Of a stretch of DNA of 64,000 nucleotides, positions 38,641 through 57,036 are shown piece after piece. The notes under the pieces are model-generated. The model did no database searches. It was not told where the DNA came from and worked only from the letters and a program-made list of their open reading frames with translations. Source of the DNA: a virus; IMG/VR virus record IMGVR_UViG_3300027759_000003, positions 32,001 through 96,000 of that record; one strand, 5' to 3'. Position 1 is the stretch's first letter. Every line of letters starts with the position of its first letter. The translations under genes were made by a program, and so were the position numbers.

Positions 38641-38652
38641 CAAAGGAGAAAT

Positions 38653-38853
38653 ATGAAAAAAGATAACGCAACTAAAATAAAAGAAACAAAGACAACACAA
38701 TGTTTTAGTTATGAAATAACAATGTTAGTACACGTTATTTCTGATACCGAAACAAACGCTAAAGCACAATTAGACGAAAAAGGCGGTATTGTTACAAAAC
38801 GTAATGTACAATTAGTTAATAAATCAACTCTCTACGGAGAAGAAACGGAATAA
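38653..38853 (+). CDS. Small hypothetical protein (paralog of 43310-43471)
   Basis: AGGAG RBS; CFSYEITMLVH...LDEKGG motif. Confidence 0.65.
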   Translation: MKKDNATKIKETKTTQCFSYEITMLVHVISDTETNAKAQLDEKGGIVTKRNVQLVNKSTLYGEETE

Positions 38854-38855
38854 TC

Positions 38856-39197
38856 ATGGGTCACTATGCAAAAATAGAAGACGGAATTGTTACACAGGTA
38901 ATCGTTGCCGATGGACCAGACTGGTGTGAAAAAAACTTAGGTGGTGAATGGGTTCAAACCTCATACAACACACACGGTGGAGTTCATTCAGGCGGTAAAT
39001 TTGCTATCCACAAAAATTATGCAGGTATTGGATACACATTTGACGGTATTGGCTTTGCCGCACCTCAACCTTATCCATCTTGGACAAAAAATTTAAACAC
39101 ATACTTGTGGGAAGCACCAACCCCAATGCCAGTTGATGACAAAATCTATCGTTGGGATGAAGACACAACCTCTTGGGTTGAAGTAACACAAGAATAA
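38856..39197 (+). CDS. Conserved partner of glycine-rich proteins (putative fibre assembly/chaperone)
   Basis: MGHYAKIEDGIVTQVIVA...WVQTSYN...KNYAGIGYT...PQPYPSW...WEAPTPMP...WDE motif family. Confidence 0.75.
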   Translation: MGHYAKIEDGIVTQVIVADGPDWCEKNLGGEWVQTSYNTHGGVHSGGKFAIHKNYAGIGYTFDGIGFAAPQPYPSWTKNLNTYLWEAPTPMPVDDKIYRWDEDTTSWVEVTQE

Positions 39198-39212
39198 AAA
39201 AAAGGTATCTAA

Positions 39213-41174
39213 ATGGCAGCCAAAAGAGTAGTTACCAGTAGTAGTATAGCCAACAGTTTTAAGATGAGTGTTGGACAATCTTCTGCTGCCATTCCAAATT
39301 CCCCGACAATCGGCACTGCTACTGCTGTAACAGGAACTACTGCTACTGTTGCTTATACTGCTGCCGTATTAGGGGCTACAGCATCATCCTTTACTGCTAC
39401 ATCTAATCCAGGATCACTTACTGGTACTGGTTCTTCACCTATAACGGTTAGTGGTTTGACTGGTGAAACAAATTATACTTTTACAGTTTATGCAACTAAT
39501 GCAAATGGTAACTCAGCGCAATCTGGTGCAAGTAATCAAATTACTACTCCTACTGCAAACTTAATTATTGATGCTCTTGTTATTGCTGGCGGTGGTGGAG
39601 GTGGAAGTTATGGAACTAGTGGTGGCGGCGGCGCAGGCGGATTATTATATTTTAGTTCACAAACTCTATCTCCTGCATCTTATGTAATAACTGTTGGAGC
39701 AGGAGGTGCAGCAGCCACTAATGGATATGATTCACAATTTGGTGCGTTAACTTCGGCTATAGGTGGTGGAACAACTGGAACTAATGGTGGTTCTGGTGGT
39801 GGTGCTGGTGACACTGGTAACGCTGGCTCTGGTGTAGTTGGACAAGGAAACAACGGAGGATCTAGGGGTGGAAGCATTGGTTTAGGAGGAGGAGGTGGTG
39901 CAGGAGGTGCTGGCGGAAATGGTTCAGGTAATGGTGGTGTAGGTGGTGCTGGTGTAAACACATATTCATCTTGGGCATCTGCAACTTCTACAGGTGTATC
40001 TGGATATTACGCTGGCGGCGGCGGTGGCGCTGGCCATTATAGTCAACAGGTTGGAGGTGCAGGTGGTTCAGGTGGAGGTGGAAATGGTGGTTCTGCTGAC
40101 ACAGTTGCTGCTACTTCTGGAGTTGCAAATACAGGTTCAGGTGGTGGTGGTGGTGCATTTGCTGGTTATAGTCCTAGTCCACTTGGTGGTTCAGGTGGTT
40201 CAGGAATTGTTATAGTTCGTTATCAATCTGGTACACAAAAAGCATTAGGTGGAACAATTACAACATCTGGAGGATATTATTATCATACATTTACTGCATC
40301 AGGTATTTTTCAAACAGAGTATTCAGTAGCAAAAGCAACTGGCGGATCAATAAATACTGATGGTACTTATTGGTATCACACATTTACTGGTTCAGGTACA
40401 TTTACTCCTACTCAATCATTAACTGCTGATTATTTGGTAGTAGCAGGCGGCGGCGGTGGAGGAAACATGGGCGGTGGCGGCGGAGCAGGTGGACTTCGTT
40501 CTACTGTTACTGCAACAGGCGGTGGCGGTTCATTAGAATCATCAGTATCTTTAATTAACAATACAGCATACGCAATTTCTATTGGTGCAGGAGGAACTAG
40601 TTCAGTTCAACATAATATTTCTGGCGGTCAAGGTGTAAATTCATCAATTATTGGTGGAGCAATCTCTATTACATCTACAGGTGGCGGTGGTGGAGCAAGT
40701 TATGCTTCAAGCCCAAGTAGTGGTGGTTCAGGTGGCGGCGGCCAGCGTTCTAATGGTGCAGGAGCATCTGGAACACAATATCAGGGTTATGCAGGTGGTT
40801 CAGGTGGTGGATATAGCGGTGGTGATGATAGTCTTTCATCTGGCGGTGGCGGAGGCGGAGCAGGTACTATTGGTGGTTCATATAATTCTGGAATTACTAA
40901 AGCAGGTAATGGTGGTAACGGTGTTCAAATTACTGCATTATCAACACCAACTGGAACTGGTAAAGACAGTGGCTATTACGCAGGTGGTGGTGGAGGTGGT
41001 GGATATAACTCAACCGCTGGGTCTGCAGGTCTTGGTGGAGTAGCAGGTGTAACTGGTGGCAATAATGGTATATCTGGAACTCCAAATACTGGTAGTGGCG
41101 GTGGAGGTGGCGGTACTGGAAGAAATGGCGGACCAGGCGGTAGCGGTATAGTAATAATTAGGTATGCAGTCTAA
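39213..41174 (+). CDS. FN3 + two glycine-rich domains protein 3
   Basis: Same architecture as 36655-38640; nearly identical FN3 DNA. Confidence 0.8.
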   Translation: MAAKRVVTSSSIANSFKMSVGQSSAAIPNSPTIGTATAVTGTTATVAYTAAVLGATASSFTATSNPGSLTGTGSSPITVSGLTGETNYTFTVYATNANGNSAQSGASNQITTPTANLIIDALVIAGGGGGGSYGTSGGGGAGGLLYFSSQTLSPASYVITVGAGGAAATNGYDSQFGALTSAIGGGTTGTNGGSGGGAGDTGNAGSGVVGQGNNGGSRGGSIGLGGGGGAGGAGGNGSGNGGVGGAGVNTYSSWASATSTGVSGYYAGGGGGAGHYSQQVGGAGGSGGGGNGGSADTVAATSGVANTGSGGGGGAFAGYSPSPLGGSGGSGIVIVRYQSGTQKALGGTITTSGGYYYHTFTASGIFQTEYSVAKATGGSINTDGTYWYHTFTGSGTFTPTQSLTADYLVVAGGGGGGNMGGGGGAGGLRSTVTATGGGGSLESSVSLINNTAYAISIGAGGTSSVQHNISGGQGVNSSIIGGAISITSTGGGGGASYASSPSSGGSGGGGQRSNGAGASGTQYQGYAGGSGGGYSGGDDSLSSGGGGGGAGTIGGSYNSGITKAGNGGNGVQITALSTPTGTGKDSGYYAGGGGGGGYNSTAGSAGLGGVAGVTGGNNGISGTPNTGSGGGGGGTGRNGGPGGSGIVIIRYAV

Positions 41175-41233
41175 TAAATAATAAAATAATGATACAATGT
41201 TTTTATAACTTTGATTTTTTTGAAGGGATTTAA

Positions 41234-42760
41234 ATGGCAGTCAACAACCTAAATAAGGTAAAAATTCCAGGTACTGGAACTACTGCTGCCCGTCCATCTA
41301 ATCCTGCTGTAGGAGATACTTTTTATAACGGTACCCTCGGAAGATTAGAAATTTATACATCACAAGGATGGATGGCTTTAAATGCCCCAGCAGCAACCCC
41401 TACAGGTGTAACAGCAACAGACGCAGGTTCTGGCAGGGCATACAATAATGGCTCTGCATCAATAGCATTTACTCCAGCAACAGCAGGTGGTCTACCAACA
41501 TCATATGTAGTTACATCATCTCCTGGCTCCTATACTGCGACGGGATCAGTAAGTCCAATCATAGTATCAGGTCAACAATCTTCAACTCAATATACATATA
41601 CAGTAGTAGCAAGCAATGACTTTGGAACAGCAACATCTTCTGCATCTAGTGCAGTTACTGCAACTACCGTGCCACAGGCTCCTACAATTGGTGCTGTAAC
41701 TGGTGGAAATGCTTTAGCAACAGTTGCCTATACAGCAGGTGCAACTGGTGGTTTATCTAATACTTATACTGCTACATCATCTCCAGGTGGACTTACTGGT
41801 ACTGGTTCAAGTCCTATTACAGTTTCAGGATTAACTAATGGAACTTCATATACATTTACAGTAACAGCAACAAATGCTAACGGAACATCAGCAGCAAGTG
41901 CTGCAAGTAGTTCAGTAACTCCTGTTGCAGAAATTTTAGTTGATTACCTTGTACTTGCAGGAGGCGGTGGCGGAGGCGGAGGCGGTGGTGGTGCAGGTGG
42001 ATTGCGTTCTACTGTAACTGCAAGTGGTCGTGGTACCGCACCCGAATCCAATTTAACTTTATTACCTTCAACTAATTATGCGGTTACAGTTGGTGCTGGC
42101 GGTGCTGGTGTTCTGGGTTACGAAGGAACTGGTGCTGGTGGTGGCATCGGAGCAAACTCTGTATTTAGCACTATAACTTCTCTTGGTGGAGGCGGTGGCG
42201 GAAGCAACGCTAATTTTGGTACTAACGGTGGTTGTGGTGGTGGAGCGTGTTATTCATCAGGTCAGTCAGGTCCAGGAGCAGGAACTGCTGGTCAAGGATT
42301 TGATGGTGGTCAAGATACAGTTGATATTGCCCCATATCCTGGTGCTGGTGGTGGAGGAACTGGTCAAGCAGGACAAGTGCCCCTTACTGCATCTGTCCCT
42401 GGTCCTGGAGGTAATGGTACGGCTGTATCAATTACTGGTACATCAGTTACGTATGGCGGCGGAGGCGGAGGTGGAATATATCCTTACTCTTCTACTGGTG
42501 CTCCTGGTGGTACTGGCGGAGGCGGAAGTTCAAGTGGTGGAGTAGGTGGCGACGGTACTGTCAATCTTGGTGGTGGCGGTGGTGGAAATTCAAGAACTCA
42601 AACAGGTGGCAATGGCGGAGCAGGTGTAGTTATTCTTAGATACCCAGACACTTTTACAATTTCAATTGGAGCAGGTTTAACAGGAACTACAAGTTCACCA
42701 AGTGGCGGATACAAAAGAACAACATTAACTGCAGGTACTGGAAATGTGAGTTGGGCATAA
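41234..42760 (+). CDS. Two FN3 + glycine-rich domain protein 4
   Basis: N-terminal GTTAARPSNP..GDTFYN...LEIY fibre motif; two FN3; Gly-rich domain ending TAGTGNVSWA. Confidence 0.8.
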   Translation: MAVNNLNKVKIPGTGTTAARPSNPAVGDTFYNGTLGRLEIYTSQGWMALNAPAATPTGVTATDAGSGRAYNNGSASIAFTPATAGGLPTSYVVTSSPGSYTATGSVSPIIVSGQQSSTQYTYTVVASNDFGTATSSASSAVTATTVPQAPTIGAVTGGNALATVAYTAGATGGLSNTYTATSSPGGLTGTGSSPITVSGLTNGTSYTFTVTATNANGTSAASAASSSVTPVAEILVDYLVLAGGGGGGGGGGGAGGLRSTVTASGRGTAPESNLTLLPSTNYAVTVGAGGAGVLGYEGTGAGGGIGANSVFSTITSLGGGGGGSNANFGTNGGCGGGACYSSGQSGPGAGTAGQGFDGGQDTVDIAPYPGAGGGGTGQAGQVPLTASVPGPGGNGTAVSITGTSVTYGGGGGGGIYPYSSTGAPGGTGGGGSSSGGVGGDGTVNLGGGGGGNSRTQTGGNGGAGVVILRYPDTFTISIGAGLTGTTSSPSGGYKRTTLTAGTGNVSWA

Positions 42761-45316: not shown

Positions 45317-45339
45317 AAACTTATTGTATCCTATTTTTG

Positions 45340-46070
45340 GCGGGTACAGAAGGAGTATCGTAATCCCCAGTGTAATAACAAACCTTATATCCCCATAGCC
45401 CCATATCCCAGATAGCCAGATATGTCTGGTTTGGGAACCAACGAGATGGTTAAATACCGTCGCAAATAGGGCTTGGAAGGCTTTTAAATAGGTGGTTTGG
45501 AGGTTTGGTATGAAAGATAATCCTTACTGACATTTTTTAGATTGGGTTAGAATGGAGGAAAGTGGAGCATAGTGGGGGATTGGGCGATTTTATAGATGGC
45601 GTCGTAATCCTCTGGCGGCCAAACCTCCCTATCCCAAACCTTCCTATCTCCATATGCGGCATGCATTATATACCCAAAAGCAAGGTTTGTCAAGTAAAAA
45701 ACCCCTATAAAAACATAACAAAAAAGTTATAAAAGTATTAAAAAACCAGGGAAAAAGTATAGAAAGGTTTGGTAATTATGGGAATAGTTTGTATAAATCT
45801 GGGATTTTTTTTGCCCCTTCGTAATGTGTTATTATACTATCAATCAGCGCCGCCACGGGCGGCAGAAATGGGCGGGGATAAAAAGATATACCCATACCCC
45901 TAGTATAAGAGAGATGAATCTGGAAAATATTTCAAACCTTCGTAATGTCTTTTTAGAAAATAAGGTTTGGAAGGTTTGGCTATCAATGGGGAAAATATTT
46001 TGATGGATCGTAATGTCTTTTTCGTAAATAAGGTTTGGAGGTTTGGTAATTGATACCGGGTTTTTCCTAT
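45340..46070. repeat. Non-coding region dense in AGGTTTG/CAAACCT and TCGTAAT motifs
   Basis: About 730 bp with no ORF of 60 aa or more; roughly a dozen (A)GGTTTG-type and about six TCGTAA(T) copies. Confidence 0.6.
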
Positions 46071-46187
46071 GCTGGTAGGCGATCTTTAATTAAGTTAGCA
46101 ATGATGTTGTGTGCCTGGTCCACTTCATGTAGAGAGCCAGACCATAGCAACTGTTGGGCTTTAAGTAACTGTTCATCTAAATAGTTA

Positions 46188-46472
46188 TTACTCAGTTCCA
46201 TTGTTCTTCTCCTCTGCACTCTCAAAGACCTCATCTAAATCAGAGAAGCCAGTATCCTCTAGGTTTAACCCTGCTAAGAATAGTGCCCATGTTTCTGTTA
46301 TATACCGTGCCCCGTCATCTGCTACCTCACAAAGGTTCTCAGAAACAAAGTAAGCAAGCGGTAGCCCTAAGTCATTAAACTCTATGAAGTCTTTAAACTC
46401 TTCATCATCTTTATATACGGAATAAAGTTTTCCTAAAATCTCACATACATTACGGAAGTCGGTCACTATCAT
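46188..46472 (-). CDS. Hypothetical protein
   Basis: FIEFNDLGLPLAY motif; true start may be slightly downstream. Confidence 0.65.
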   Translation of the reverse strand: MIVTDFRNVCEILGKLYSVYKDDEEFKDFIEFNDLGLPLAYFVSENLCEVADDGARYITETWALFLAGLNLEDTGFSDLDEVFESAEEKNNGTE

Positions 46473-46683
46473 ACCCCAATCTGTTTTGCTCTATCTTGTC
46501 CTCTTGGAACTTAGCACTTTCTAATACTTCTAATGACCTGCGATAAATTAAATAAGGAGTTGCCCTAGCCAAATAATAGCCAACCTTTTCTAAGTCAAGG
46601 TAAAAGTCAGATAGCAATTTGCCAATTCCAACCGCAACCTTTTCCTCATTGGTCTGTCGCTTTACTCTGTTAATACGATACAT
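46450..46683 (-). CDS. Hypothetical protein
   Basis: G-rich RBS; 77 aa. Confidence 0.6.
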   Translation of the reverse strand: MYRINRVKRQTNEEKVAVGIGKLLSDFYLDLEKVGYYLARATPYLIYRRSLEVLESAKFQEDKIEQNRLGYDSDRLP

Positions 46684-46757
46684 GAAACCCCTATCTAAAT
46701 TATACCAAAGGAAAAGGGAGAGCGCAACCCACCACAGTTAACGCCCTCCCCATATTG

Positions 46758-47156
46758 CTAGCGAGAGGTGACCCCAACCTCCGCTGATGAAGCCCCCACA
46801 GTGGAGAGAGCACTGCTGGGCAAATTATAAGTAATAAAACTATCAATGTCTTTGTGGTCTACACCATCATGACTAATAGTATTATCTGTGAGATCGATTA
46901 ATATTGGATGGTCCGCAAACCCTAAGTCATTAGGATTGCAGGCATAGATACCAAACCCTGTTTCCTCCAAGATGGAGTCTTGCATCAAATAACTAATAGC
47001 CATGCGGGTATAGTATTCTGTATCACCTTTACGTACCGCTGCATGCTGCAGGGCCTGAGCAAGATCTTGATACATGCTGTCTTCACCCCAATGGCTATAC
47101 AGCGCTACTGCTAGATCCTCTGATTGTTTAAATATGAATGTACAACGTGCTCCCAT
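46758..47156 (-). CDS. Conserved phage early protein (MGAR...LYSHWG family)
   Basis: MGARC..., ALYSHWG and YYTRMAISYL motifs. Confidence 0.7.
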   Translation of the reverse strand: MGARCTFIFKQSEDLAVALYSHWGEDSMYQDLAQALQHAAVRKGDTEYYTRMAISYLMQDSILEETGFGIYACNPNDLGFADHPILIDLTDNTISHDGVDHKDIDSFITYNLPSSALSTVGASSAEVGVTSR

Positions 47157-47301
47157 TATGCATCCGTCCTTTCAGGTATGATTGATATTTGGTTTGTTAT
47201 CTCATTAAAGATATCGTTCTCGTCTTCGGTGTCAGTCTCATATTCAAAATTCATATAAGTACCTGTTGGCTCAAAGATTATTTCAACATCCCATGTAGCC
47301 A

Positions 47302-47619
47302 TTATAGGTCCCCTTCAAAATCGATTACAACTTTAGAAACTCTGCCGTCATCGTTCATCTGAACATATACTGGATATAGCCCATCGCCATAACCTGTATT
47401 AAATACTACTGCCGTGCCATTACCTAACTCGCCATATGAATTAGCAAGGGTAGTAGCACTAGCACCATGATAAGAGTATTGACCTTCTTTGCCGTCAATA
47501 TTCCAATCATCATTTTTGTTGGTATCCCAATTATCAATATAGCATGGGTCGCCTACCATGGCCTGACCGCTATCAACTGCAAAATGTCCTGCTAAGATTA
47601 AATCTTTTGTTTTTATCAT
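47302..47619 (-). CDS. DUF4241-like protein
   Basis: VDSGQAMVGDPCY and TGYGDGLYPVY motifs. Confidence 0.7.
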   Translation of the reverse strand: MIKTKDLILAGHFAVDSGQAMVGDPCYIDNWDTNKNDDWNIDGKEGQYSYHGASATTLANSYGELGNGTAVVFNTGYGDGLYPVYVQMNDDGRVSKVVIDFEGDL

Positions 47620-47628
47620 TAGGTCTCC

Positions 47629-48192
47629 TTAGAAGTGGAAGTCAACTGGTACTAGATATTGTCTCACGGCTCGATCAGGTTTGTCAAGTCGCTCATCTAA
47701 ATACTCGAATTCAGAGACATGTTCTTGAAGGTCGTAAAACCCACTGTCGGATGTCCAAGAGCCCATGAGCATTTCTGCTGCTTGTTTAATAGAATAAACA
47801 TTCATTAGGGTATCTCCGTTCCAGGGACCCCTGCCACCCTCTGAAGCATAGTCGACCATTTGACTAATAAACTTATCAGTCTTAATCTCTACTATGTTCC
47901 TGTTCATGGTTTGAGAGCGGAACCTTAAGATATCCTTAACTACTTCTTGGAACTTTTCTTTATTTTCAGCATAGCCAATAACATCAGTAGGGTCATCGTT
48001 ATAACCCCCCATAAGGTTGTTTTCGCTTTTTTTGTTGGCATTAGTACTCCACCTTCCTCCACCTACGACGTGCCAATCTGACCAGTCTGCTAGGCGATAT
48101 CCGTCTTCGTTTGATTGCAGGCTTACAACAACTTTGTCAAAAGCCTCTTGCTTGCTATCTGCTTCAACTGCTATATAGTGTAGGGTATGCAC
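47629..48192 (-). CDS. Hypothetical protein
   Basis: WSDWHVVGGGRW...YLVPVDFHF motif family. Confidence 0.7.
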   Translation of the reverse strand: MHTLHYIAVEADSKQEAFDKVVVSLQSNEDGYRLADWSDWHVVGGGRWSTNANKKSENNLMGGYNDDPTDVIGYAENKEKFQEVVKDILRFRSQTMNRNIVEIKTDKFISQMVDYASEGGRGPWNGDTLMNVYSIKQAAEMLMGSWTSDSGFYDLQEHVSEFEYLDERLDKPDRAVRQYLVPVDFHF

Positions 48193-48515
48193 TATTCGTC
48201 CCTTCCCTCAATTAGTTGTATCTGATAGTACTGTTTGTCATCGTAGGGCACGGTAGTTACAAAGTAACCAATCCTATTAACCATATGCATACCGTCACAG
48301 ATATAAGTTCCACCGTCATCTCCGTCACAGTAAGTCCAAACAGTATTAGGATGTAGAAACACATGGTCTCTAACAAACTCTACCTCGTCACCATATGTCT
48401 CAAACATATAGCCGTGCTCACCGTCATTGAATGAGGCATTCTCGTCTAAATGGTTTGGTATAGGCTTGAACTGTTTAAACCATTCATCCTCTGTAAGTTT
48501 TACTAACTTGGGCAT
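48192..48515 (-). CDS. Hypothetical protein
   Basis: MFETYGDE...VWT...VNRIGYFVT motif family. Confidence 0.7.
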   Translation of the reverse strand: MPKLVKLTEDEWFKQFKPIPNHLDENASFNDGEHGYMFETYGDEVEFVRDHVFLHPNTVWTYCDGDDGGTYICDGMHMVNRIGYFVTTVPYDDKQYYQIQLIEGRDE

Positions 48516-48584
48516 TGGGCTTCTTTCTCTAGGGTTCTTAATACAATTTTACTACGAACTGGGAAAAATTACAAGGTATCGTAA

Positions 48585-48600
48585 GGTGATCTACATCACA
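48585..48600. promoter_or_regulatory. CRP/GlxR-type box upstream of a leftward sigma70 promoter (48546-48574)
   Basis: GGTGA-TCTACA-TCACA; promoter TTGTAA-17-TAAAAT on the minus strand. Confidence 0.6.
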
Positions 48601-49316
48601 CTGCTTTGGCTTGCTCCCCAATAGGTTTGAGGGTTCTCTTCAAGAAGTCCCCTAATACTATTAATAACCTCTTCGTCAGACATGATCTCTCCGTCTGTGT
48701 TTATAAGTTCCATAATCTTATCTATGATCTCACCGTGGTCCATTAGTCTTCATCCTCATCTTCATCAATTACATATGCAACATTAGACTGACCCTCGTGA
48801 AATGAAGGTGGGTCTTGCCATATACCCCAAGATAAAGAACTATCAGATAGGCCCTCTGACACTAAGTCTCCACCAAATTGCGATGAATATGTTTTAGTCA
48901 CATTACCCATAGTATGTGTTCTCATCTATGTAACCTTCTGCTAACAAACCTTCAAAGAAGTCCCATATGGTTAATAGGCCTTGCTTTACTTTTGGGTCGG
49001 TAGCGGAATCAATAGCAACAGTTAAACTATTACCAAATTCTTGTATATCCTTGTATGTATAACCTAACATTATCTATCATACTCCTTAATCAAATTCATC
49101 GCAAAGTGAAGACAACAATCGCAGTCTCCATTATTCATGCTATATATAAAGTCAAAATGTTCAGAGTTGTCCTCATATATATTCATTATTAGGCCGTCTA
49201 TGGTTAGTGGTTTGTTAATTGTGGTCATGTTAATATTTTACAGGAAACTGGGGAAAAAGTCAATCTTTCTTAATGAAACAATCATGTGTTATTATTTAAA
49301 GAAAGAAAACCCGGAG

Positions 49317-49390
49317 CGGCTCTGATGGGACTTGAACCCACGATCTCTACCGTGACAGGGTAGCGCATTAACCAACTATGCTACAGAACC
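49317..49390 (-). tRNA. tRNA-Asp(GTC)
   Basis: Minus strand GGTTCTG...CTACC-ctGTCac-GGTAG...GGTTCAAGTCC...CAGAGCC. Confidence 0.93.
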
Positions 49391-49395
49391 AATGG

Positions 49396-49425
49396 TGAGC
49401 AGTTTTAAATCATGCTCAGGATTTT
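49396..49425 (-). ncRNA. Repeated pseudoknot-like RNA motif copy (between DUF932 and tRNA-Asp)
   Basis: AAATC-CTGAGCAT-GATTT-AAAAC-TGCTCA. Confidence 0.55.
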
Positions 49426-49428
49426 TTA

Positions 49429-50445
49429 CTAAACTAGTTGCAAAGTTTTTTGCACAACAGTTAGCAAACGATTTTTTTCTGCATTAGTTGCAGGGTCAAA
49501 TCCAGAAGCAGCAGCAAACATGCTTTCGCCATTTGCACTACGAGATGAACGATACCAGTCTAAACGCTCAGTAAGTGCATTAAATGCGCCCCAAGCATTA
49601 CCAGCAATCATGCCATTAAAATCACCAGTATAAATATCGTTAATCATATTTACCTTGTTTTCCCATTTCTTGATTGCACCCTTAGTATCTAATTCAGGTT
49701 TTGGATAAGCAGCAAGAATAATATCATTGAAATCTTTCGCTGATATTTCTTTTTGTATCATAGCATGAGCCATCTTGTCGAATTCGTCCATGTATGAGTT
49801 AGCCATACCTAGTGCTTGACGAGCAACAGCAACCTTGCCATTGGCAGTTTGTGTATGACGGATTTTGAAAGATTGCTTGACGCCATCTTTTTTCTTAGTA
49901 CGATTGAGTGCAACATTAAGAGTGTTAGCGCACACAACACGAACGGGAGTGATAGAAGCCTGAATTGCAATAGAGCCATCATGGCTAGTGTTAATAAGCA
50001 AATAAGTTTTAACCTTATCCGCAACACCATTTGGGTCTAATACAGTTTCACGCTCTAAAGCAAGAGAGCCAAATACTACACGACCACCCTTAAGAGAGCC
50101 AGCAGTTTCCCAACGACCTCCACCATCAAGAATGTTATCGCCAAATGCAAATAACTCTTCATTTTGTAGTGGTGTGTATCGCTCACCAACAATTCCCAAA
50201 ACATCAGTTTGAGATTTATCAGTTGGGTTTGTACGAACAACATATTGATATTGTTTGTCAGATACTAAACTAGATGGGATTTCTAAATCCTCTAGTCTAA
50301 CATTCCAATTATTTAAGTTAGCAGCAACAAGCATTTCACTTGTATTTTTTTCAGTATCAAATACTGTGCCAAGATTGTGCCATGCAGGCTCTCTAAATGA
50401 AGCAAAACTTGCTACGCCATTTTGAGTTTCTAAATCATGAGCCAT
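49429..50445 (-). CDS. DUF932/DUF945-family phage protein
   Basis: PAWHNLG, YTPLQNEE, WETAGSL.GG, NTSHDGS and TPVRVVCANTL motifs. Confidence 0.88.
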   Translation of the reverse strand: MAHDLETQNGVASFASFREPAWHNLGTVFDTEKNTSEMLVAANLNNWNVRLEDLEIPSSLVSDKQYQYVVRTNPTDKSQTDVLGIVGERYTPLQNEELFAFGDNILDGGGRWETAGSLKGGRVVFGSLALERETVLDPNGVADKVKTYLLINTSHDGSIAIQASITPVRVVCANTLNVALNRTKKKDGVKQSFKIRHTQTANGKVAVARQALGMANSYMDEFDKMAHAMIQKEISAKDFNDIILAAYPKPELDTKGAIKKWENKVNMINDIYTGDFNGMIAGNAWGAFNALTERLDWYRSSRSANGESMFAAASGFDPATNAEKNRLLTVVQKTLQLV

Positions 50446-50471
50446 TTTTATCCTTTCGGTTGTTTTAACTA

Positions 50472-50500
50472 AGTTTAGCAGTCATGACAGCCAATGTCAA
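50472..50500 (-). promoter_or_regulatory. Consensus sigma70/SigA promoter for DUF932
   Basis: TTGACA-17 bp-TAAACT with extended TG. Confidence 0.8.
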
Positions 50501-50576
50501 ATAGGATTGGGGAAAATGGTTTAATCTTCTTAATTGGTATAAATCGGACATTTCGGGCGGGGCCGGGTTTTTGTTA

Positions 50577-50606
50577 GGGCCAGTTTTACGTCTTGGCCCA
50601 CGACGT
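50577..50606 (-). ncRNA. Repeated pseudoknot-like RNA motif copy (covariant variant)
   Basis: ACGTC-GTGGGCCAA-GACGT-AAAAC-TGGCCC. Confidence 0.5.
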
Positions 50607-50662
50607 TGATAGCCCCCTATCAAATTTAAGCGGTCCCTGCAGCGGATGCTACAGATCTCTTA

Positions 50663-51127
50663 TTAGTTCTCCTCAAGTGACACATCGTCTACAGTTAAGT
50701 CAGCGTCATAGTCATATGAACTTAATTCTGCATCAATGGTTACACTGCTTAGATCAAAGTCTTCAATCTCATCCAATGGGATGTTAATAGTTCCACTGAA
50801 TGTAACGGTGCCGTATACACTCATTTGCTTTACAGGATTAAGATTAAAGTGTTGTGTTAGCGCTTTTAAAACTTCTTCTTTAGAATAGTTTGGGTCATAC
50901 CATTCAGGAATTTGATCTTCAAGCCATGAGATGTCTAAACGACGCTCTGCTGCTAGATTGGCATTAGTTCTGCCTTGATGTAGTTCCCATTCAAGATCAG
51001 TAACTTTATCAGTCATGAATGTAGGGCTTTCAGGTGCTGCATAGGTGTCAGGTATAGCCTTGTAGGTTACAAGTAGGTTAGGATTGTATGGAACAGATAA
51101 CTGCTCCTGTGTCATTACTTCGCTCAT
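50663..51127 (-). CDS. Acidic hypothetical early protein
   Basis: ATG at 51127 after AAGGA; promoter TTGCAT-17-TATTAT at 51153-51181. Confidence 0.65.
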   Translation of the reverse strand: MSEVMTQEQLSVPYNPNLLVTYKAIPDTYAAPESPTFMTDKVTDLEWELHQGRTNANLAAERRLDISWLEDQIPEWYDPNYSKEEVLKALTQHFNLNPVKQMSVYGTVTFSGTINIPLDEIEDFDLSSVTIDAELSSYDYDADLTVDDVSLEEN

Positions 51128-51262
51128 TAGGGGTTCCTTTTCTGTTAATACAATAATATCATCAAGATTGTGGGAATGCAAGTTCAGTTCTTAATTAGTC
51201 TCACATAATGAGATGTGATTTAGATCACGCTGCCCCGGATTTTTGCGGGGGGCAATTAAAGA

Positions 51263-51292
51263 TGAGCAGTTTAGAACTCATGCTCAGGAGTC
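51263..51292 (-). ncRNA. Repeated pseudoknot-like RNA motif copy
   Basis: GACTC-CTGAGCAT-GAGTT-CTAAAC-TGCTCA. Confidence 0.55.
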
Positions 51293-51342
51293 TTATCTCA
51301 GGAATAACTTAGCAATTAAGCCAAGTGCTTATCAGAGATAAA

Positions 51343-51513
51343 TTATTTAGTTGTGCTTACCATAGCAAGGCGTCTTGCGCCATTTGCTAATTGTAAGGAT
51401 ACTCTAGTGGTCTTAGAGTTGATAGGTGAGAACTTTACAATTCTACCTGTGATACCTGTTTTGCTTGTGGTGAATAAATCACCTAGTTGGTATGTGTATC
51501 CGCCTAGTGTCAT
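51343..51513 (-). CDS. Small SH3/KOW-like beta protein (paralog of 52112-52282)
   Basis: Read by eye: MTLGGYTYQLGDLFTTSKTGITGRIVKFSPINSKTTRVSLQL; promoter TTGACT-17-TATACT at 51550-51578. Confidence 0.65.
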   Translation of the reverse strand: MTLGGYTYQLGDLFTTSKTGITGRIVKFSPINSKTTRVSLQLANGARRLAMVSTTK

Positions 51514-51595
51514 GATTTTCCTTTTCTGTTGTGGTGGTTTGTTATATTAAGTATAACATTTTTGGGGGGGCAAGTCAAGAACCCCCCCAATACTA

Positions 51596-52018
51596 TTAGA
51601 GATAACGAGCAATAGCGTTATATGTGCTAGTGCTAACTGTTTCCTCGTCCGTCATTTTAAGGATACGGATAGCGTTCTCAAGTTCCTCTTTCATTTCACG
51701 ATAAGTATGAGCATGGATTTGCTCAAAATTACGCTCAGGCTCTTTGGGAAAGTCTGCCTCATCTGTGATTAAATCAAAATCAACATTAAGGGTTTTGTTC
51801 CAAGAACGATAGTTAGTGCGTAGGTTTTCAGCCTTTGAGATGTTAGCAGTAGCAAACTTAGCAACTTCTTTGCGCCATTTATCTACTTGCTTTTGGAACT
51901 TTGCTTCCAGTTCATCTTGATTTGTGTAGTCAGCATTTACTTGTGCTAACTTTGTTTCTAAGGCTTTGATAACCTTAGCAGTAGCGATTTTTACGCTGAT
52001 GGGTTTGCTTCTTGCCAT
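51596..52018 (-). CDS. Hypothetical early protein
   Basis: 140-aa ORF ending NAIRILKMTDEETVSTSTYNAIARYL. Confidence 0.7.
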   Translation of the reverse strand: MARSKPISVKIATAKVIKALETKLAQVNADYTNQDELEAKFQKQVDKWRKEVAKFATANISKAENLRTNYRSWNKTLNVDFDLITDEADFPKEPERNFEQIHAHTYREMKEELENAIRILKMTDEETVSTSTYNAIARYL

Positions 52019-52065
52019 TTGGTTTGTTTCCGTTTCTGTTGGTGAGTTTGATGGGGGTATTAAGT

Positions 52066-52092
52066 TGAGCAGTTTCTCGTCATGCTCAGGAC
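52066..52092 (-). ncRNA. Repeated pseudoknot-like RNA motif copy
   Basis: GTC-CTGAGCAT-GAC-GAGAAAC-TGCTCA preceded by hairpin TTAGCC-tagt-GGCTAA. Confidence 0.55.
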
Positions 52093-52111
52093 TTTAGCCA
52101 CTAGGCTAAGA

Positions 52112-52282
52112 TTAAGCGTTCTTTGCTGTCCAAGTTGTCCAGCGAGTTGAGCCATTAACATCTAACTTAACTCTAACTGTGTTCTTGTTAGTTGGCACAA
52201 TTTCGGTAATAGTTCCTACTACCTTTGATTTTTGTGATGTGTAGGTGTCGCCTACCTTGTATGTTGCGTTTGCTACGGACAT
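52112..52282 (-). CDS. Small SH3/KOW-like beta protein
   Basis: AGGAG RBS; YKVGDTYTSQKSKVVGTITEI...VRVKLDV. Confidence 0.65.
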   Translation of the reverse strand: MSVANATYKVGDTYTSQKSKVVGTITEIVPTNKNTVRVKLDVNGSTRWTTWTAKNA

Positions 52283-52377
52283 GGTTCTCCTTCTTGTTGG
52301 TTTTTGCTTACTGTATAAGTCTAACATTTTTTGGTCAAAAATACAAATTATCTCATGGATAATCTCATATATTGAGA

Positions 52378-52393
52378 TGTGAGATATATCACA
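52378..52393. promoter_or_regulatory. CRP/GlxR-type box (perfect)
   Basis: TGTGA-GATATA-TCACA. Confidence 0.7.
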
Positions 52394-52467
52394 CTTAATG
52401 CCCCATGCCTGAGAATAGGATATATAAGAATATAAGTGATAATACTATTAGTATCTCCATATGCCCC

Positions 52468-53196
52468 TTATTTCTTAGATGATGAAAAGACTATGTCGCT
52501 CTTAGAGTATACACACAAACCGCAAGATACGCAAGCCGAGCCAGCGCTTGAGATAAGTGGAATGGCTTTTAGGTTTTCAGGGCACTTAGCACCAGGTCGA
52601 TTAAATAACTCCTTCATATCTGCCTGACCTATTGCAAAATTCTGTGCAAGGTATGCAAGGCGTATCCCATGATCTTTCTTTAAATTAACGCCTATCTGCT
52701 TATTCTCGCTGTCTGTTGAATAGTATAAGGATAGATTAGGAATATCCTTTAGCATTACCGCTGCAGGCTGTACCCTTGTATATACCCAGAATTTTATATC
52801 TGTATTGTTAAGGATGATTTGTTTCCATGCTTTGGTGTACGTGTCATTAAAGAAATCACCGTCCCAATGAATACGAAATAACAATGACGCATTTTTCTTT
52901 TCACAATCTTTTTTAAAATCATTAATCATATTCTGCAATAGATCAATCATAGTCGATTCGTCAGCGTCTTTTAATAATTCCCAATTATGTATTAGGTTTG
53001 CCTTTACGGCTTTGTAAAGTTTTTCAAGTTTTCCTGCGTAGCAAACACTTTCACAAACACTAGTGGCACCAGGGCATGAATAATTCTTTCCAGCGGGAAG
53101 ACCGAACGTGTTTGCAATTGCGGCTTGCTTTCCATTTTTTGTAACAAGATTAGCAACCTTTCTGTCAAATGATCTTTTTAATTGTGGTGTTGTCAT
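52468..53196 (-). CDS. Gp88-family phage protein
   Basis: FGLPAGKNYSCPGATSVCESVCYA, FRIHWDGDF, WVYTR and C-terminal CVSCGLC. Confidence 0.8.
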   Translation of the reverse strand: MTTPQLKRSFDRKVANLVTKNGKQAAIANTFGLPAGKNYSCPGATSVCESVCYAGKLEKLYKAVKANLIHNWELLKDADESTMIDLLQNMINDFKKDCEKKNASLLFRIHWDGDFFNDTYTKAWKQIILNNTDIKFWVYTRVQPAAVMLKDIPNLSLYYSTDSENKQIGVNLKKDHGIRLAYLAQNFAIGQADMKELFNRPGAKCPENLKAIPLISSAGSACVSCGLCVYSKSDIVFSSSKK

Positions 53197-53299
53197 ATAA
53201 ATATTTTAGCAGAATGTGGAGAAAATATCAAGTGTACGTAAGGTACAAAACGGACAAATCGGGCAGGGCCGGGTTTTTCTGCGGGGAAGTGCAGAAAAA

Positions 53300-53533
53300 T
53301 TATTCTAAGTGAACATACCAATCATAGTATTCATTATCAACTAACTGAGCGGTATCTTTTTCACCAAACTCATTTTGATACTCTGCATACCAAAAGTATT
53401 GGTCAGGATCAGATTCAATAGAAAGTATTTCAACTACCTCATCATTGTATCCAATAAAATCTCCAACCATCATCATAGAAGGTTTGAGAATATCTATTTT
53501 CTTTAATTCCATGTTCATCATTGTAGCAGCCAT
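53300..53533 (-). CDS. Hypothetical early protein
   Basis: GAGG RBS; 77 aa. Confidence 0.55.
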   Translation of the reverse strand: MAATMMNMELKKIDILKPSMMMVGDFIGYNDEVVEILSIESDPDQYFWYAEYQNEFGEKDTAQLVDNEYYDWYVHLE

Positions 53534-53618
53534 TTATTCAGCCTCAATTTCTGCTAGGGTTTCCCATAGAATAGGTTCTAGAATTTTTGCAACCTGATCT
53601 AATTTATCTTGCAAGTCT

Positions 53619-53915
53619 TTACTCATATAAGTCCTCATCTGCTGGCTCAATGAACCACTCTAGGTGTGCGTGTGATACCAATGCGCTGGCGGTAGTCCAA
53701 GTGTTGCCCTTCCAACTAATTTGAAAGCCATCAACAACTGGTAATTCTATTCTACGAGAATAATCCTCCTCATAGTATGCGTCAATAGCCTCAATACATG
53801 GCTGAACCATTACTGTTGGTATTGGTGGATAATGATTACCTTGTAAGTGATACTTTAATTGTGTTTCTAGGTCTAGCGTTGTATCTGCTAAACCTATTGC
53901 TGTTATGCTTCCCAT
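53619..53915 (-). CDS. Hypothetical early protein
   Basis: HLQGNHYPP...PCIEAI...HAHLEWF motif family. Confidence 0.7.
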   Translation of the reverse strand: MGSITAIGLADTTLDLETQLKYHLQGNHYPPIPTVMVQPCIEAIDAYYEEDYSRRIELPVVDGFQISWKGNTWTTASALVSHAHLEWFIEPADEDLYE

Positions 53916-54139
53916 TATTTAATTACGACCTCTCCGTTAGTGTAGAAGGTTTTAGTATACATCTTACCTGTTGGGTCAGACAAATTATAGGTTGCGTATT
54001 CTTTAGCAAAGCCATAGTCCACGCATTTATCCCAAGCCCTAACTGCTTCTAGCATATCGCTAACTCGCAGGGTATGAATTAACTCTCCATCATATGAAGT
54101 AGTAAGTGAATAAGTATATTCCATTAGTTTAGTTTCCAA
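53915..54139 (-). CDS. Hypothetical early protein
   Basis: AWDKCVDYG.AKEYATYNL motif; coupled to the downstream gene. Confidence 0.6.
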   Translation of the reverse strand: METKLMEYTYSLTTSYDGELIHTLRVSDMLEAVRAWDKCVDYGFAKEYATYNLSDPTGKMYTKTFYTNGEVVIK

Positions 54140-54313
54140 TCCATTAGTTCGTCAGCAGATATAGCGTAAGGATTACACTCGCAAGGCTCACTATCAAAGT
54201 CTACATTATTTCCTTGATATATCCAACCATAGCCGTAGCAGTATTCGTGCTCTAGTATATCCATTAGTGCTTCTTTTACTTTACCCATTTGTTCCTTCTT
54301 TCTTTATATCTTT

Positions 54314-54335
54314 ATCCTATCAGATACAACTGACA
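54314..54335 (-). promoter_or_regulatory. PafBC-type (RecA-NDp) promoter
   Basis: TGTCAG-N10-TAGGAT. Confidence 0.6.
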
Positions 54336-54435
54336 AAATCCAATTAGACGCCTTAATCTGGGGAATTTAGGGTGTGATCTTAACCACACGTAAAGGTCAT
54401 GTATAGATTGCGACACGCCGCCTGCGCCGGGTTTT

Positions 54436-54451
54436 TCGAACAAATGTTTGA
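54436..54451. promoter_or_regulatory. Actinobacterial LexA (SOS) box-like site
   Basis: TCGAAC-AAAT-GTTTGA, one mismatch to TCGAAC-N4-GTTCGA. Confidence 0.45.
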
Positions 54452-54476
54452 GCAGTTTTTATTCTTGCTCAGGAAT
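54449..54476 (-). ncRNA. Repeated pseudoknot-like RNA motif copy
   Basis: ATTC-CTGAGCAA-GAAT-AAAAAC-TGCTCA. Confidence 0.55.
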
Positions 54477-54482
54477 TTTTAT

Positions 54483-54629
54483 TTATACTTTAAATGCTTT
54501 ACGCAATTCATTTCGCAATCTGCGAATTTCTTTTTGTTGTGCAATATTTTGTTTCCAAAATAAACCCATAACAGTTAAGCAACCAAGTAGCGCAATTATT
54601 ATTGCAATCACATCTAAATTAGTTATCAT
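54483..54629 (-). CDS. Small single-TM protein
   Basis: Read by eye: MITNLDVIAIIIALLGCLTVMGLFWKQN... Confidence 0.55.
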   Translation of the reverse strand: MITNLDVIAIIIALLGCLTVMGLFWKQNIAQQKEIRRLRNELRKAFKV

Positions 54630-54634
54630 TTGTT

Positions 54635-54844
54635 TTACCCCTTCCACATTTCAGAGCCAACAGGAATTAAACCAATTTCATCAATTCCGCAAGCCTTTTC
54701 AAATCTTGCAAAATCAAAGTTTTCATTATCTGATTGAAACCAATCCGCAAATTCTTGAATTAAATCTTCATAAGTATTTTGTGGAATTTCATCTACAAAA
54801 CTTTTTAGAATGTTTGCGGTTTTGATGTAGTCTTTTCTAGTCAT
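54635..54844 (-). CDS. Hypothetical early protein (MTRKDY...NFD..RF..AC family)
   Basis: Recognisable small phage protein motif. Confidence 0.7.
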   Translation of the reverse strand: MTRKDYIKTANILKSFVDEIPQNTYEDLIQEFADWFQSDNENFDFARFEKACGIDEIGLIPVGSEMWKG

Positions 54845-54992
54845 TAGTCAGCCTCTTTCGTAGTAAATAAAGTGCCTAGTGCAAAGTTTTTACATTCGCA
54901 CTTTTCTACATCATAGGCAAGATTATCTCCCCAAAAAATATAACCTGCGCCATTACATTCATCACACTTAAAAGTCATTACGCTACTAATCA

Positions 54993-55178
54993 TTATGCTA
55001 ACGCCTTTCCTCTAAGTGTGCCACGAACACCCAACACATCACAAGCAATTTTTACAGATACGCCAACAGGTAATTGGTTTGGGTAAGTGTTTATGAATTG
55101 AGCAACCGCACCCTGAGAAGGTAGGTTGATATTTTTTACAGCACCATTAAAGGTTTCTAGTTTTACAGTATAAGTCAT
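54993..55178 (-). CDS. Small early protein (paralog of 57173-57367)
   Basis: VKLETFNG...FINTYPNQLPVGVSV. Confidence 0.65.
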   Translation of the reverse strand: MTYTVKLETFNGAVKNINLPSQGAVAQFINTYPNQLPVGVSVKIACDVLGVRGTLRGKALA

Positions 55179-55211
55179 TTCTGACCACCTTTCGTTTTTG
55201 TTTGAGTTATT

Positions 55212-55233
55212 ATTCTATCAATTATCGCTGACA
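55212..55233 (-). promoter_or_regulatory. PafBC-type (RecA-NDp) promoter
   Basis: TGTCAG-N10-TAGAAT; perfect CRP box at 55262-55277. Confidence 0.62.
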
Positions 55234-55382
55234 TTTTCCAATTATAGGGGGTGTGTTGGAGTGTGAGTTGCCTCACATCTCCTTTATATTAGCCTGATGA
55301 TAAGCAAGGGTTATCTCCTCGCCATACTCGGCTACTAGGTCGGCATAGACCTCATCTAGATAGTTAAGGTAATCAGACATTA

Positions 55383-55583
55383 TTAACCTACCTGAACCGC
55401 TACGGTGCGGAAAGTATTGTTAATGCGACCTTCATCTATTTCTACAAAATAGGCTTCAGTATTATCACCATACCAAAGAGCACCCTTAGATTTTTCTGCG
55501 GAAATAATTGTTCCGTCAGTTAAGGATTTAGATGAATAAGATTTACCAATTAGCAAATCTTCTATTGTGTATAAGTTAGCCAT
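55383..55583 (-). CDS. Small early protein
   Basis: MANLYTIEDLLIGKSY...; RBS and promoter upstream. Confidence 0.65.
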   Translation of the reverse strand: MANLYTIEDLLIGKSYSSKSLTDGTIISAEKSKGALWYGDNTEAYFVEIDEGRINNTFRTVAVQVG

Positions 55584-55620
55584 TGTTAGCCACTTCCTTT
55601 CGTTATTTTCTTACTCCGTA

Positions 55621-55642
55621 AGTCTATCAGAATTAACAGACA
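55621..55642 (-). promoter_or_regulatory. PafBC-type promoter (variant TGTCTG)
   Basis: TGTCTG-N10-TAGACT; perfect CRP box 55691-55706; DnaA box 55718-55726. Confidence 0.55.
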
Positions 55643-56229
55643 TTTACAACCTACTAGCCAGTAATCTCAAATAATAAGACGCTCAAACTGTGTGAGAAAA
55701 ATCACATCGTACGTAAGTTATCCACAGGCTGTGGACGACACGCCATGCGTGCCGGGTTTTTTGCAGAGTTTTTATTTCTGCAAAAATTTTTTATTAGTTA
55801 AATTTATCTAATAAAATTTGTTTAACAATTTCTAATTGCGCTTCGGTTAAATTAGTTAATTCAACTGCGTTTTCAAATTGCTTAGTTATGCTTTCTGTAT
55901 TATTTTGCATTTTTATGTTTTACCTTTCTACTATATTTTTTTTTATTTGGAATTGGTGTTGCCGCATTACTACGGCGCAATTCTTGAATACGAATAATTT
56001 TGTTTTTTATTTCTTTTAACATTTTATTATTCCCAACAATTAGAGCAAGTAATTATATCTTGCTCATCAAAAAATTCGCTAGAAACTTTTTCATTACATA
56101 GACGACAATTAAGAGTTATCATTTATATTCTCCTTTTAAGATAAGTTCATCTAGCATTTTTGCTAGAGGGTCTATCTGCTCGTCAGCAAGATAGTTAGTT
56201 AATTCTAAATCTTTTACAAAGTTTATCAT

Positions 56230-56403
56230 TTACTTACCTACCTTCCATGAAGACCAATAAGATAGCAATTCGCTATCCTCAATATAGTGAGAATAAATAT
56301 TCTGCTCACAATTTTCGCAGAAACTATATTTCATATCATTTACGATAGATGTCGCTAATAGATTAGCGGTGTGCTTACACACTTTGTTTAGTAGTGAATT
56401 CAT
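56230..56403 (-). CDS. First leftward early gene, small Cys-containing protein
   Basis: Read by eye: MNSLLNKVCKH...SFCENCEQNI...WSSWKVGK; AAGGA RBS. Confidence 0.55.
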   Translation of the reverse strand: MNSLLNKVCKHTANLLATSIVNDMKYSFCENCEQNIYSHYIEDSELLSYWSSWKVGK

Positions 56404-56455
56404 TTTGAATTCCTTTCTTTAAGAGATTTACTTATTGTTCAATCTTTATACTAGA

Positions 56456-56477
56456 AGTATAACAGCGACCACTGACA
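56456..56477 (-). promoter_or_regulatory. PafBC-type (RecA-NDp) promoter
   Basis: aTGTCAGTGgtcgctgtTATACT matches tTGTCRgtg-N8-TAnnnT / TGTCRG-N10-TAnnnT. Confidence 0.65.
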
Positions 56478-56489
56478 TTTACTGACCAG

Positions 56490-56850
56490 TAGGTAGGACA
56501 AAACGGACATTGTGTCTTGTGATGTAGGTCATGTGGATAACTTGAGCGTGAAATGGGTATGTGATCTACGTCATGTGGATAACCCTCTCAGACACACCCG
56601 ACCGAGCCGGGTTGCATGTCCGATATGTCCGATATGTCGTGTGGTATATATCACTAATTACATGCGTGTTATTTACGGCGTGTCGTGTTGACTTTTGGGG
56701 TTATCCCTGCTATAATTCCATTATAGAAAATTAAATATAGAATTATTTAGGGGCGTGAGCCTAGCAAGTAAATGTGAGACAAATCACAGTGAGCCTAGCA
56801 AATAACCCCCCCTAAATTGTCAGCCCCCCCTGCTAGAATTGCAGGTATAG
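56490..56850. promoter_or_regulatory. Divergent regulatory hub (CRP boxes, DnaA boxes, sigma70 and PafBC promoters)
   Basis: CRP-like boxes 56518, 56560, 56640, 56773; TGTGGATAA 56532 and 56574; TTGACT-17-TATAAT 56688-56716; TGTCAG-N10-TAGAAT 56818-56839. Confidence 0.7.
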
Positions 56851-56880
56851 AAAGAAAGTCTCTTGAAAGGAGAACTACAA

Positions 56881-57036
56881 ATGATAAACAATAACCCTAA
56901 CAATCCCCTTATTTCGGATATTAGAAAAGCCCAACAGGCTCGCTATGACCGAGAGGATCAGAGTATCCTTGAAGCGTTAAATCAGGCTAACGCCTATCTA
57001 TCTGCTCAATACAATTTAGATGAGGAGGTTAAGTAG
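56881..57036 (+). CDS. First rightward early gene, small protein
   Basis: AGGAG RBS; 51 aa read by eye. Confidence 0.55.
   Translation: MINNNPNNPLISDIRKAQQARYDREDQSILEALNQANAYLSAQYNLDEEVK

Follow-up and report, generated by a model that had tools for sequence, protein, structure and literature searches.

Eight CCGG sites remain at the borders of early-gene units in a lake-water phage genome otherwise free of them

The DNA analysed here, referred to as the window, is a 64-kb stretch (bases 32001–96000) of a 109,757-bp viral genome, IMG/VR record IMGVR_UViG_3300027759_000003, which as a whole is labelled G000. The window carries an early block (about 44000–57000) that consists of a series of small minus-strand genes, including a DUF932 gene and a GP88-family gene, together with a tRNA-Asp. 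The units of this block are separated by a short GC-rich sequence, here called the border word, which in G000 contains the tetranucleotide CCGG. Read on the coding strand, each module begins with the genes of one unit and a gene-end RNA structure (pseudoknot or hairpin), continues with an A/T run, the border word and operator-type boxes, and ends with a promoter-like site ahead of the next genes; the run is an A-run in G000 and a T-run in some other lineages. The genome comes from lake-water metagenomes, and 20 such runs contain 35–41% of the words. The early region has no match among isolated phages by megablast, and an Rfam E-value scan of 44–58.5 kb gave the tRNA-Asp as its sole match.

A sequence-only reading of the window had claimed that CCGG is scarce except at a handful of intergenic unit junctions, although base composition predicts tens of copies, and exact counting bears this out. 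CCGG occurs eight times in the window (at 46056, 49311, 50563, 51235, 53269, 54427, 55752 and 56607), all at the positions claimed, compared to 50.9 ± 7.1 in dinucleotide-preserving shuffles. The complete genome contains the same eight copies and none besides, where a maximal-order Markov model predicts 85.6 (z = -10.7). The eight sites span 10.6 kb, and the probability that, given one of them, the other seven would lie so near is ~8e-8. Each is located between open reading frames (ORFs) of the small-gene series or adjoins the tRNA-Asp. The copy near the tRNA-Asp had been described as inverted and indeed is, whereas the remaining seven of the eight words share one orientation relative to the A/T run and to transcription. 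The word reads CCGGGTTTTT five times and CCGGATTTTT and CCGGGTTGC once each; on the coding strand its general form in G000 is AAAAACCCGG(C), which can be summarised as AAAAACCCGGC.

CCGG is not the only palindrome missing from this genome. By the same Markov expectation, whole G000 contains 0 of 343 AGCT, 0 of 56 CGCG and 31 of 134 GGCC, and GTAC and CATG are also low. Depletion of several 4-bp palindromes is the signature of restriction-site avoidance, and it holds in eight related genomes that we compared whole (G001–G008). CGCG is absent or nearly absent in all nine genomes. AGCT is absent from seven of the nine and is not avoided in G003 and G008, while TCGA is present at 61 of 88 expected copies in G000 and has disappeared from G004, G007 and G008. 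The purged set therefore varies among related lineages, as differing host restriction repertoires would predict.

Table 1. Positions of the border words and of neighbouring features, in window coordinates.
Feature	Position	Strand	Remarks
Border word 1	46056..46065	-	AAAAACCCGG on coding strand
Border word 2, inverted copy	49306..49314	+	coding (minus) strand CCGGGTTTT; two bases 3' of tRNA-Asp
Border word 3	50563..50572	-	AAAAACCCGG; upstream of DUF932 gene
Border word 4	51235..51244	-	AAAAATCCGG
Border word 5	53269..53278	-	AAAAACCCGG; upstream of GP88-family gene
Border word 6	54427..54436	-	AAAAACCCGG, then GGCGTGTCG
Border word 7	55752..55762	-	AAAAAACCCGG, then 8-bp hairpin/inverted repeat ending in GGCGTGTCG
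Border word 8	56607..56613	-	AACCCGG; where leftward and rightward genes diverge
tRNA-Asp	49316..49390
DUF932 gene	49429..50445	-	query for relatives
GP88-family gene	52468..53196	-
Sigma-70-like promoter	50472..50500	-	TTGACA-17-TAAACT, unit after word 3
Gene-end RNA before word 3	50577..50606	-	helices ACGUC/GACGU and GGGCCA/UGGCCC interleaved, UAAAAC linker; H-type pseudoknot topology
Hairpin UGAUAG-GGGG-CUAUCA	50607..50622	-	just past upstream stop codon; relatives: UAGUAG-GGGG-CUACUA
Gene-end RNA before word 6	54450..54476	-	same pseudoknot-type structure; AUUC/GAAU and GAGCA/UGCUC
Extended hairpin before word 7	55758..55786	-	U5-GCAGA...UCUGC-A5; border A-run pairs with upstream U-run
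Direct repeats beside word 8	56617..56639	+	TGTCCGATA x2 and TGTCG
CGGACA	50545; 53251; 56504
DnaA-box word TTATCCACA	56532..56540; 56574..56582	-	perfect
DnaA-box word TTATCCACA	55718..55726	+	perfect
Large-ORF block	35495..42760		four consecutive ORFs

Comparison of whole genomes revealed that the same slot is occupied by different words in different lineages. G001 and G003 each contain eight CCGG, all of them border sites, so that three of the four CCGG-type genomes (G000, G001 and G003) have no CCGG outside their borders; the fourth, G002, has eight at borders and 11 elsewhere. In G004 and G007 both CCGG and TCGA are absent and each genome contains exactly eight copies of CCCGAG/CTCGGG, which are found in the early region only, as are the five copies in G008, again with neither CCGG nor TCGA. 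G005 has no CCGG and retains 27 TCGA of 89 expected, eight of these survivors being in the border slot. One G005 border reads ...AAAAATTTT-TCGA-CAC..., compared to ...AAAAATTTT-CCGG-CAC... in locus L076 of the same well-supported clade. Moreover, an unbiased scan for 5–7-mers enriched in the early region, with no words chosen beforehand, returned AACCCGG in G000 (7 copies in the early region, 0 elsewhere), GCCCGG in G002 (8/0), CCCGAG/CTCGGG in G004 and G007 (8/0) and in G008 (5/0) and TTTTCGA in G005 (9/2). Thus, the scan and the G005/L076 pair indicate that the border slot holds a short GC-rich, often CG-centred palindromic word. This word is lineage-specific and otherwise rare or absent in the genome that carries it.

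To follow the slot across a wider set of lineages we used the DUF932 gene as a query. It matched 394 uncultured relatives, of which the best 80 loci were used (81 with the window); among isolated phages, members of the Stanwilliamsviridae that infect Streptomyces are closest, with ~53% protein identity. CCGG counts per locus are bimodal, being either 0 (50 of 81 loci, zero-type) or 7–10 (31 of 81, CCGG-type). On the gene tree at least nine state changes are needed, seven of which are forced by well-supported branches, and the CCGG-type loci, with about one CCGG per border, fall in at least 7–9 separate clades. The hexamer around the CCGG is itself a lineage trait: it is CCCGGC in G000, CCCGGG at all eight L059 borders and GCCGGC in L076 and L033. 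Zero-type lineages have CCCGAG/CTCGGG, TCGA, CCWGG or others (CCAGG, CCGAGG) at the same border positions. In close pairs of opposite state the flanks are 85–90% identical and each core differs by small parallel edits, for example CCGG versus CCGAGG or GCGGGGCCGGC versus GCGGGGCCGAGGC; the word of L058 is GCGCCAG. A universal YCGR core was considered and rejected, as the CCWGG (L006), GCGCCAG (L058) and GGGGCGGGG (L041) lineages do not contain YCGR. Classification of GC islands was noisy, since CCCGGG is itself a CYCGRG match. The earlier proposal that the sites are kept on purpose at borders thus holds in part: the border position is conserved among relatives and the survivors are non-random, but CCGG is not itself the signal, because the 50 relatives that have no CCGG use other words at these positions.

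We then examined how CCGG is gained and lost in aligned genome pairs by comparing lineage-specific gains of each tetranucleotide with the expectation from the observed substitution matrix. G000 and G001, which align over 62.5 kb at 6.0% divergence, have all eight border CCGG in common, and in neither direction was there a new CCGG (0 versus ~16 expected). This absence of gains matches that of AGCT and CGCG, while control GC-rich words gain 0.5–1.0 of expectation. When G000 is compared to zero-type relatives its CCGG gains number 2–3, all at borders, versus 15–29 expected. The gains of G002 are near neutral (8 versus 9.5 expected). A mask of ORFs of 50 aa on both strands over-calls coding sequence, and its noncoding counts were not used. 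Natural variants of border word 4, in which an insertion breaks the CCGG, are present in contigs of two lake metagenome runs.

The cultured Streptomyces BE1 phages put the border element into context. These phages have terminal repeats of ~11 kb with 20–25 ORFs (PMC5764925). In them the DUF932 homologue is gene 2 or 3 of the terminal repeat, and in Bmoc it is gene 2 of ~20 small same-strand genes inside the repeat. Nearly every gap between the Bmoc terminal-repeat genes contains, in this order, a terminator hairpin GGCCCC-TTCG-GGGGCC, a T-run, the inverted repeat GGCCG-CCC-CGGCC, in several gaps CGGACA, and a promoter. Bmoc has 11 copies of GCCGCCCCGGC per terminal repeat, all on one strand (11/11), and none in its ~110-kb unique region. 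NootNoot and Mildred21 have five and eight copies per repeat, respectively, of GTCCG-SSS-CGGAC and none outside their repeats. Across the BE1 phages the CCG-SSS-CGG inverted repeat is found at 5–11 copies per terminal repeat and nowhere else. Its arms co-vary (GGCCG/CGGCC versus GTCCG/CGGAC), its 3-bp spacer flips at orthologous sites, and every BE1 version contains CCGG. The border element is older than the purge; the BE1 phages have the same layout. We found no description of such an element in the literature searched.

Homologues of the GP88-family gene are carried by the BE1 phages in their terminal repeats and by Cluster A mycobacteriophages in their right arm, and its sharing links the lake phages, the Streptomyces BE1 phages and the mycobacteriophages through their early genes. 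The protein is ~50% identical to the Cluster A right-arm early genes (L5 gp88, D29). Because the BE1 repeats carry DUF932, the GP88 family and ~20 small genes, the early block of the window may be a long terminal repeat that was collapsed by assembly, in which case the 72-bp 'DTR' (direct terminal repeat) of the record may be a mere assembly overlap. Left of the early block, the four ORFs of the large-ORF block (386–664 aa) all belong to phrog_2295, a PHROG of unknown function, and lie in a block with a higher G+C content (0.43–0.45 compared to ~0.35). This suggests a paralogous array, possibly of tail fibre or receptor-binding genes.

The gene ends that precede the border words have RNA structures. 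The helices of the H-type pseudoknot show many compensatory changes across the 80 relatives. Its layout is S1a-CU-S2a-N-S1b-UAAAAC-S2b, and copies in L006–L085 lie ~160–110 nt upstream of the DUF932 start, with the helix covariants ACGUC/GACGU, ACAUC/GAUGU and GGAC/GUCC for one helix and GGCCA/UGGCC, GGACA/UGUCC and GAGCA/UGCUC for the other. Its topology and A-rich linker are reminiscent of the preQ1-I aptamer, and it has no Rfam match. A regular expression for the pseudoknot proved too strict (47 sense versus 12 antisense matches) and was dropped. In G000 the hairpins have a U-run on their 5' side and an A-run on their 3' side, and pairing of the border A-run with the upstream U-run often lengthens the hairpin. 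A terminator reading of these structures was rejected for G000: there is no hairpin followed by U on either strand, and only two of the eight borders are terminator-like, both antisense. A canonical terminator, a hairpin and then a U-run, is absent in G000 and present in the BE1 relatives.

The boxes that follow the word are of several kinds, namely TGTCCG repeats, GGCGTGTCG, GTGATC inverted repeats and TTATCCACA pairs. The TGTCCG half-site, seen as CGGACA in Table 1, forms the direct repeats at the divergence point beside word 8 and is found once after several border words, and the same half-site forms the arms of the NootNoot/Mildred21 border palindrome TGTCCG-SSS-CGGACA. Perfect DnaA-box words are confined, in the window, to early regulatory blocks, and in L059, L064, L011 and G005 pairs of them come directly after the border word. 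Complete loss of TCGA coincides with the CCCGAG/CTCGGG border word (G004, G007 and G008). A 198-aa orphan ORF by the early region of G004 (L102:14140-14736, minus strand), which has homologues in G007 and G008, is present only in these three TCGA-purged CCCGAG/CTCGGG (CYCGRG-type) genomes, too few to judge, and has no Pfam or PHROG match.

Among known systems, the border element most resembles two, the PeSL (promoter-early stem-loop) regulatory cassettes of T4-type phages in its anatomy and the stoperators of Cluster A mycobacteriophages in its lineage-specific intergenic word. PeSL are likewise small composite units of terminator and promoter that recur between short early genes without known function (PMC2839356, PMC4122927), in which a GC-rich polyG/polyC element lies beside an AT-rich tract and an early promoter, and their early regions are mosaic. 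As in PeSL, each of the eight borders has a gene-end hairpin or pseudoknot, an A/T run and a promoter-like site. Unlike PeSL, the border modules are preceded by a pseudoknot-type gene-end RNA, their most sharply conserved part is the short lineage-specific word, and the array does not extend beyond one early block, which in cultured relatives is the terminal repeat. Stoperators are asymmetric 13–14-bp sequences to which the immunity repressor binds and which occur genome-wide in temperate phages (PMC6550527, PMC9283540). They too are short lineage-specific intergenic words, mostly in one orientation relative to transcription, and the phages that carry them also have early genes in common with those described here, such as the gp88 family. 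In contrast, the border words number 5–11 copies, are restricted to the early block or terminal repeat and are largely inverted repeats in their BE1 versions. As the element fails at least one defining feature of each system, it is a member of neither and is not filed as a PeSL or a stoperator.

Restriction-site avoidance accounts for the depletion of several 4-bp palindromes in a lineage-dependent set (AGCT, CGCG, CCGG, TCGA and GGCC), but here the residual sites are non-random, take up a single defined slot in each early unit and give way to other words in concert. In phage T5 the pre-early (first-step-transfer) region lies in the long terminal repeat, and the DNA that enters first is without sites that are kept elsewhere. 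The phages described here are similar in that small early genes lie in a ~10-kb terminal repeat (as seen in the BE1 relatives) and early DNA is linked to restriction; the difference is that here the rest of the genome has no CCGG and the early block keeps eight. The BE1 repeats have been compared with those of T5 and SPO1 (PMC5764925).

The purge, the fixed position of the word, the early-confined lineage words and the parallel local edits are demonstrated by these comparisons. In our reading, the eight CCGG survive a restriction-type purge because they are embedded in a constrained border word, and CCGG as such is dispensable. The explanation that we favour, with a probability of roughly 55%, is that a regulator of all early units reads the word as double-stranded DNA and that the word is rewritten in concert under restriction pressure. 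Such a regulator would read the word at every early unit in an operator- or stoperator-like manner. Restriction pressure on the word would then lead lineages to rewrite all of its copies together, from CCGG to TCGA, CCCGAG/CTCGGG or CCWGG, and concerted rewriting would account for CCGG counts of either about eight or zero in relatives. A more elaborate version, which we regard as doubtful, is a chase between host restriction systems and this phage family, in which restriction of a word that cannot simply be purged forces all 8–11 copies and a putative reader protein to be rewritten together. This chase would have run from CCGG to TCGA and then to the hybrid CCCGAG/CTCGGG, which avoids both.

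Several observations weigh against a regulator-bound site. The G000 word is asymmetric and not an inverted repeat, and its distances to the promoter hexamer (27–40 nt) and to the 3' structure (5–25 nt) are both variable. No reader protein was found: none of 20 small early ORFs has a DNA-binding domain by Pfam, and none of the gene families follows word type in a convincing way. BillNye, a phage of another subfamily, has no obvious word, and G002 has 11 CCGG beyond its borders. Finally, G000 and G001 diverge in a mosaic fashion (0.4% to 22% per 2.5 kb), so the lack of CCGG gains may be due to sequence imported from a gene pool without CCGG rather than to selection in this lineage. Import or selection within the lineage aside, the eight border CCGG persisted in these two genomes and none arose elsewhere.

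An RNA-level role for the word would dispense with a DNA-binding reader. The GC-rich hairpin following the gene-end structure would attenuate read-through or protect the 3' ends of early messages, and CCGG would then be merely stem or loop sequence. The BE1 word is consistent with this, as it forms a 5-bp stem with a 3-nt loop right after the terminator hairpin and T-run and its arm changes are compensatory; border 7 of the window likewise has an 8-bp hairpin that begins in CCGG, and the polyG/polyC stem-loops of PeSL terminate transcription (PMC2839356). We nevertheless consider such a role improbable. Over 61 borders from eight genomes the mean folding z is -0.57 and the pairing probability of the word is ~0.5, with partners that differ, and a local hairpin containing the word, weak and inconsistent across these borders, was rejected. 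The terminator-like scores are confined to the two antisense cases mentioned above, and the NootNoot and Mildred21 words have an invariant right arm, CGGACA, to which the left arm is often not complementary.

The all-or-none pattern could also arise with no reader if the modules were PeSL-type recombination cassettes, with early genes shuffled, and the word made uniform within each genome, by ectopic exchange and gene conversion. Several observations favour this: the DUF932 gene of the window groups with a zero-CCGG clade and its borders match the L014 clade, cassette lengths between borders vary among lineages, L074 has three identical 24-mers at different borders, and the mosaic divergence of G000 and G001 points the same way. 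Moreover, the ends of high-identity high-scoring segment pairs are intergenic in 36–50% of cases, compared to ~20% of the sequence, and 12.5% of them lie within 20 nt of a CCGG versus 2.8% under a uniform expectation (4.5-fold). This enrichment falls to just 1.4-fold with all relatives included, and against an intergenic-only null it has p = 0.16, so the suggestion from the sequence-only reading that CCGG is a recombination point finds no support; breakpoints are enriched in intergenic blocks and not at the word beyond background. Contigs from four of the lake metagenome runs are fragmented, and their joints are short-sided and unreliable. Sister pairs retain homologous flanks, and their differences are small core edits rather than replaced modules. 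We think it rather unlikely that shuffling of cassettes explains the pattern.

It is very unlikely that CCGG itself is the signal, whether as the target of a CCGG-specific nickase, nuclease or methyltransferase or as a signal for stepwise DNA entry. We saw no evidence, in assembled contigs, of nicking, cutting or methylation specific to CCGG. No site lies away from a unit border, seven of the eight have one orientation relative to the A/T run and all persist while CCGG stays absent elsewhere, but the zero-type relatives keep the border architecture with other words and the hexamer context varies among CCGG-type lineages. PF00145 and PF01555, the C5 and N4/N6 DNA methyltransferases, were absent from five genomes by a search that was positive in 9 and 13 of 14 control genomes, which leaves the earlier idea of a methylation site without an encoded enzyme of these classes; a 206-aa Methyltransf_24 protein is a generic S-adenosylmethionine methyltransferase. 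Least probable, and already disfavoured, is a neutral leftover, in which CCGG is simply most likely to persist or re-arise in GC-rich spacers once restriction pressure lapsed: a 12-nt GC-only run is, by our estimate, likely to contain CCGG, G002 gains it at about the neutral rate and the early region has more than its share of GGCC (11 of 31 in the genome), but the counts are bimodal and not graded, the word has a fixed place immediately behind the A/T run, all eight sites were kept between G000 and G001 despite 4–11% local divergence, and CGCG is never present, even in GC-rich cores.

Collectively, these data define a repeated element of which we found no earlier description, a lineage-specific GC-rich word that is present once per early unit and confined to the early block or terminal repeat. 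It provides an apparently clear natural case in which restriction avoidance meets regulatory constraint: the purge halts exactly where a boundary element is repeated between early-gene units, and lineages resolved the conflict through parallel rewriting of every copy. The element is common to abundant uncultured lake phages and to cultured Streptomyces BE1 phages, and the latter allow bench tests. If the chase is real, the border words would be a moving regulatory code, with the host history of each lineage written in its purged palindromes. If a reader protein exists, these phages would hold a set of orthogonal word-protein pairs, and past host restriction pressure would be readable from phage genomes.

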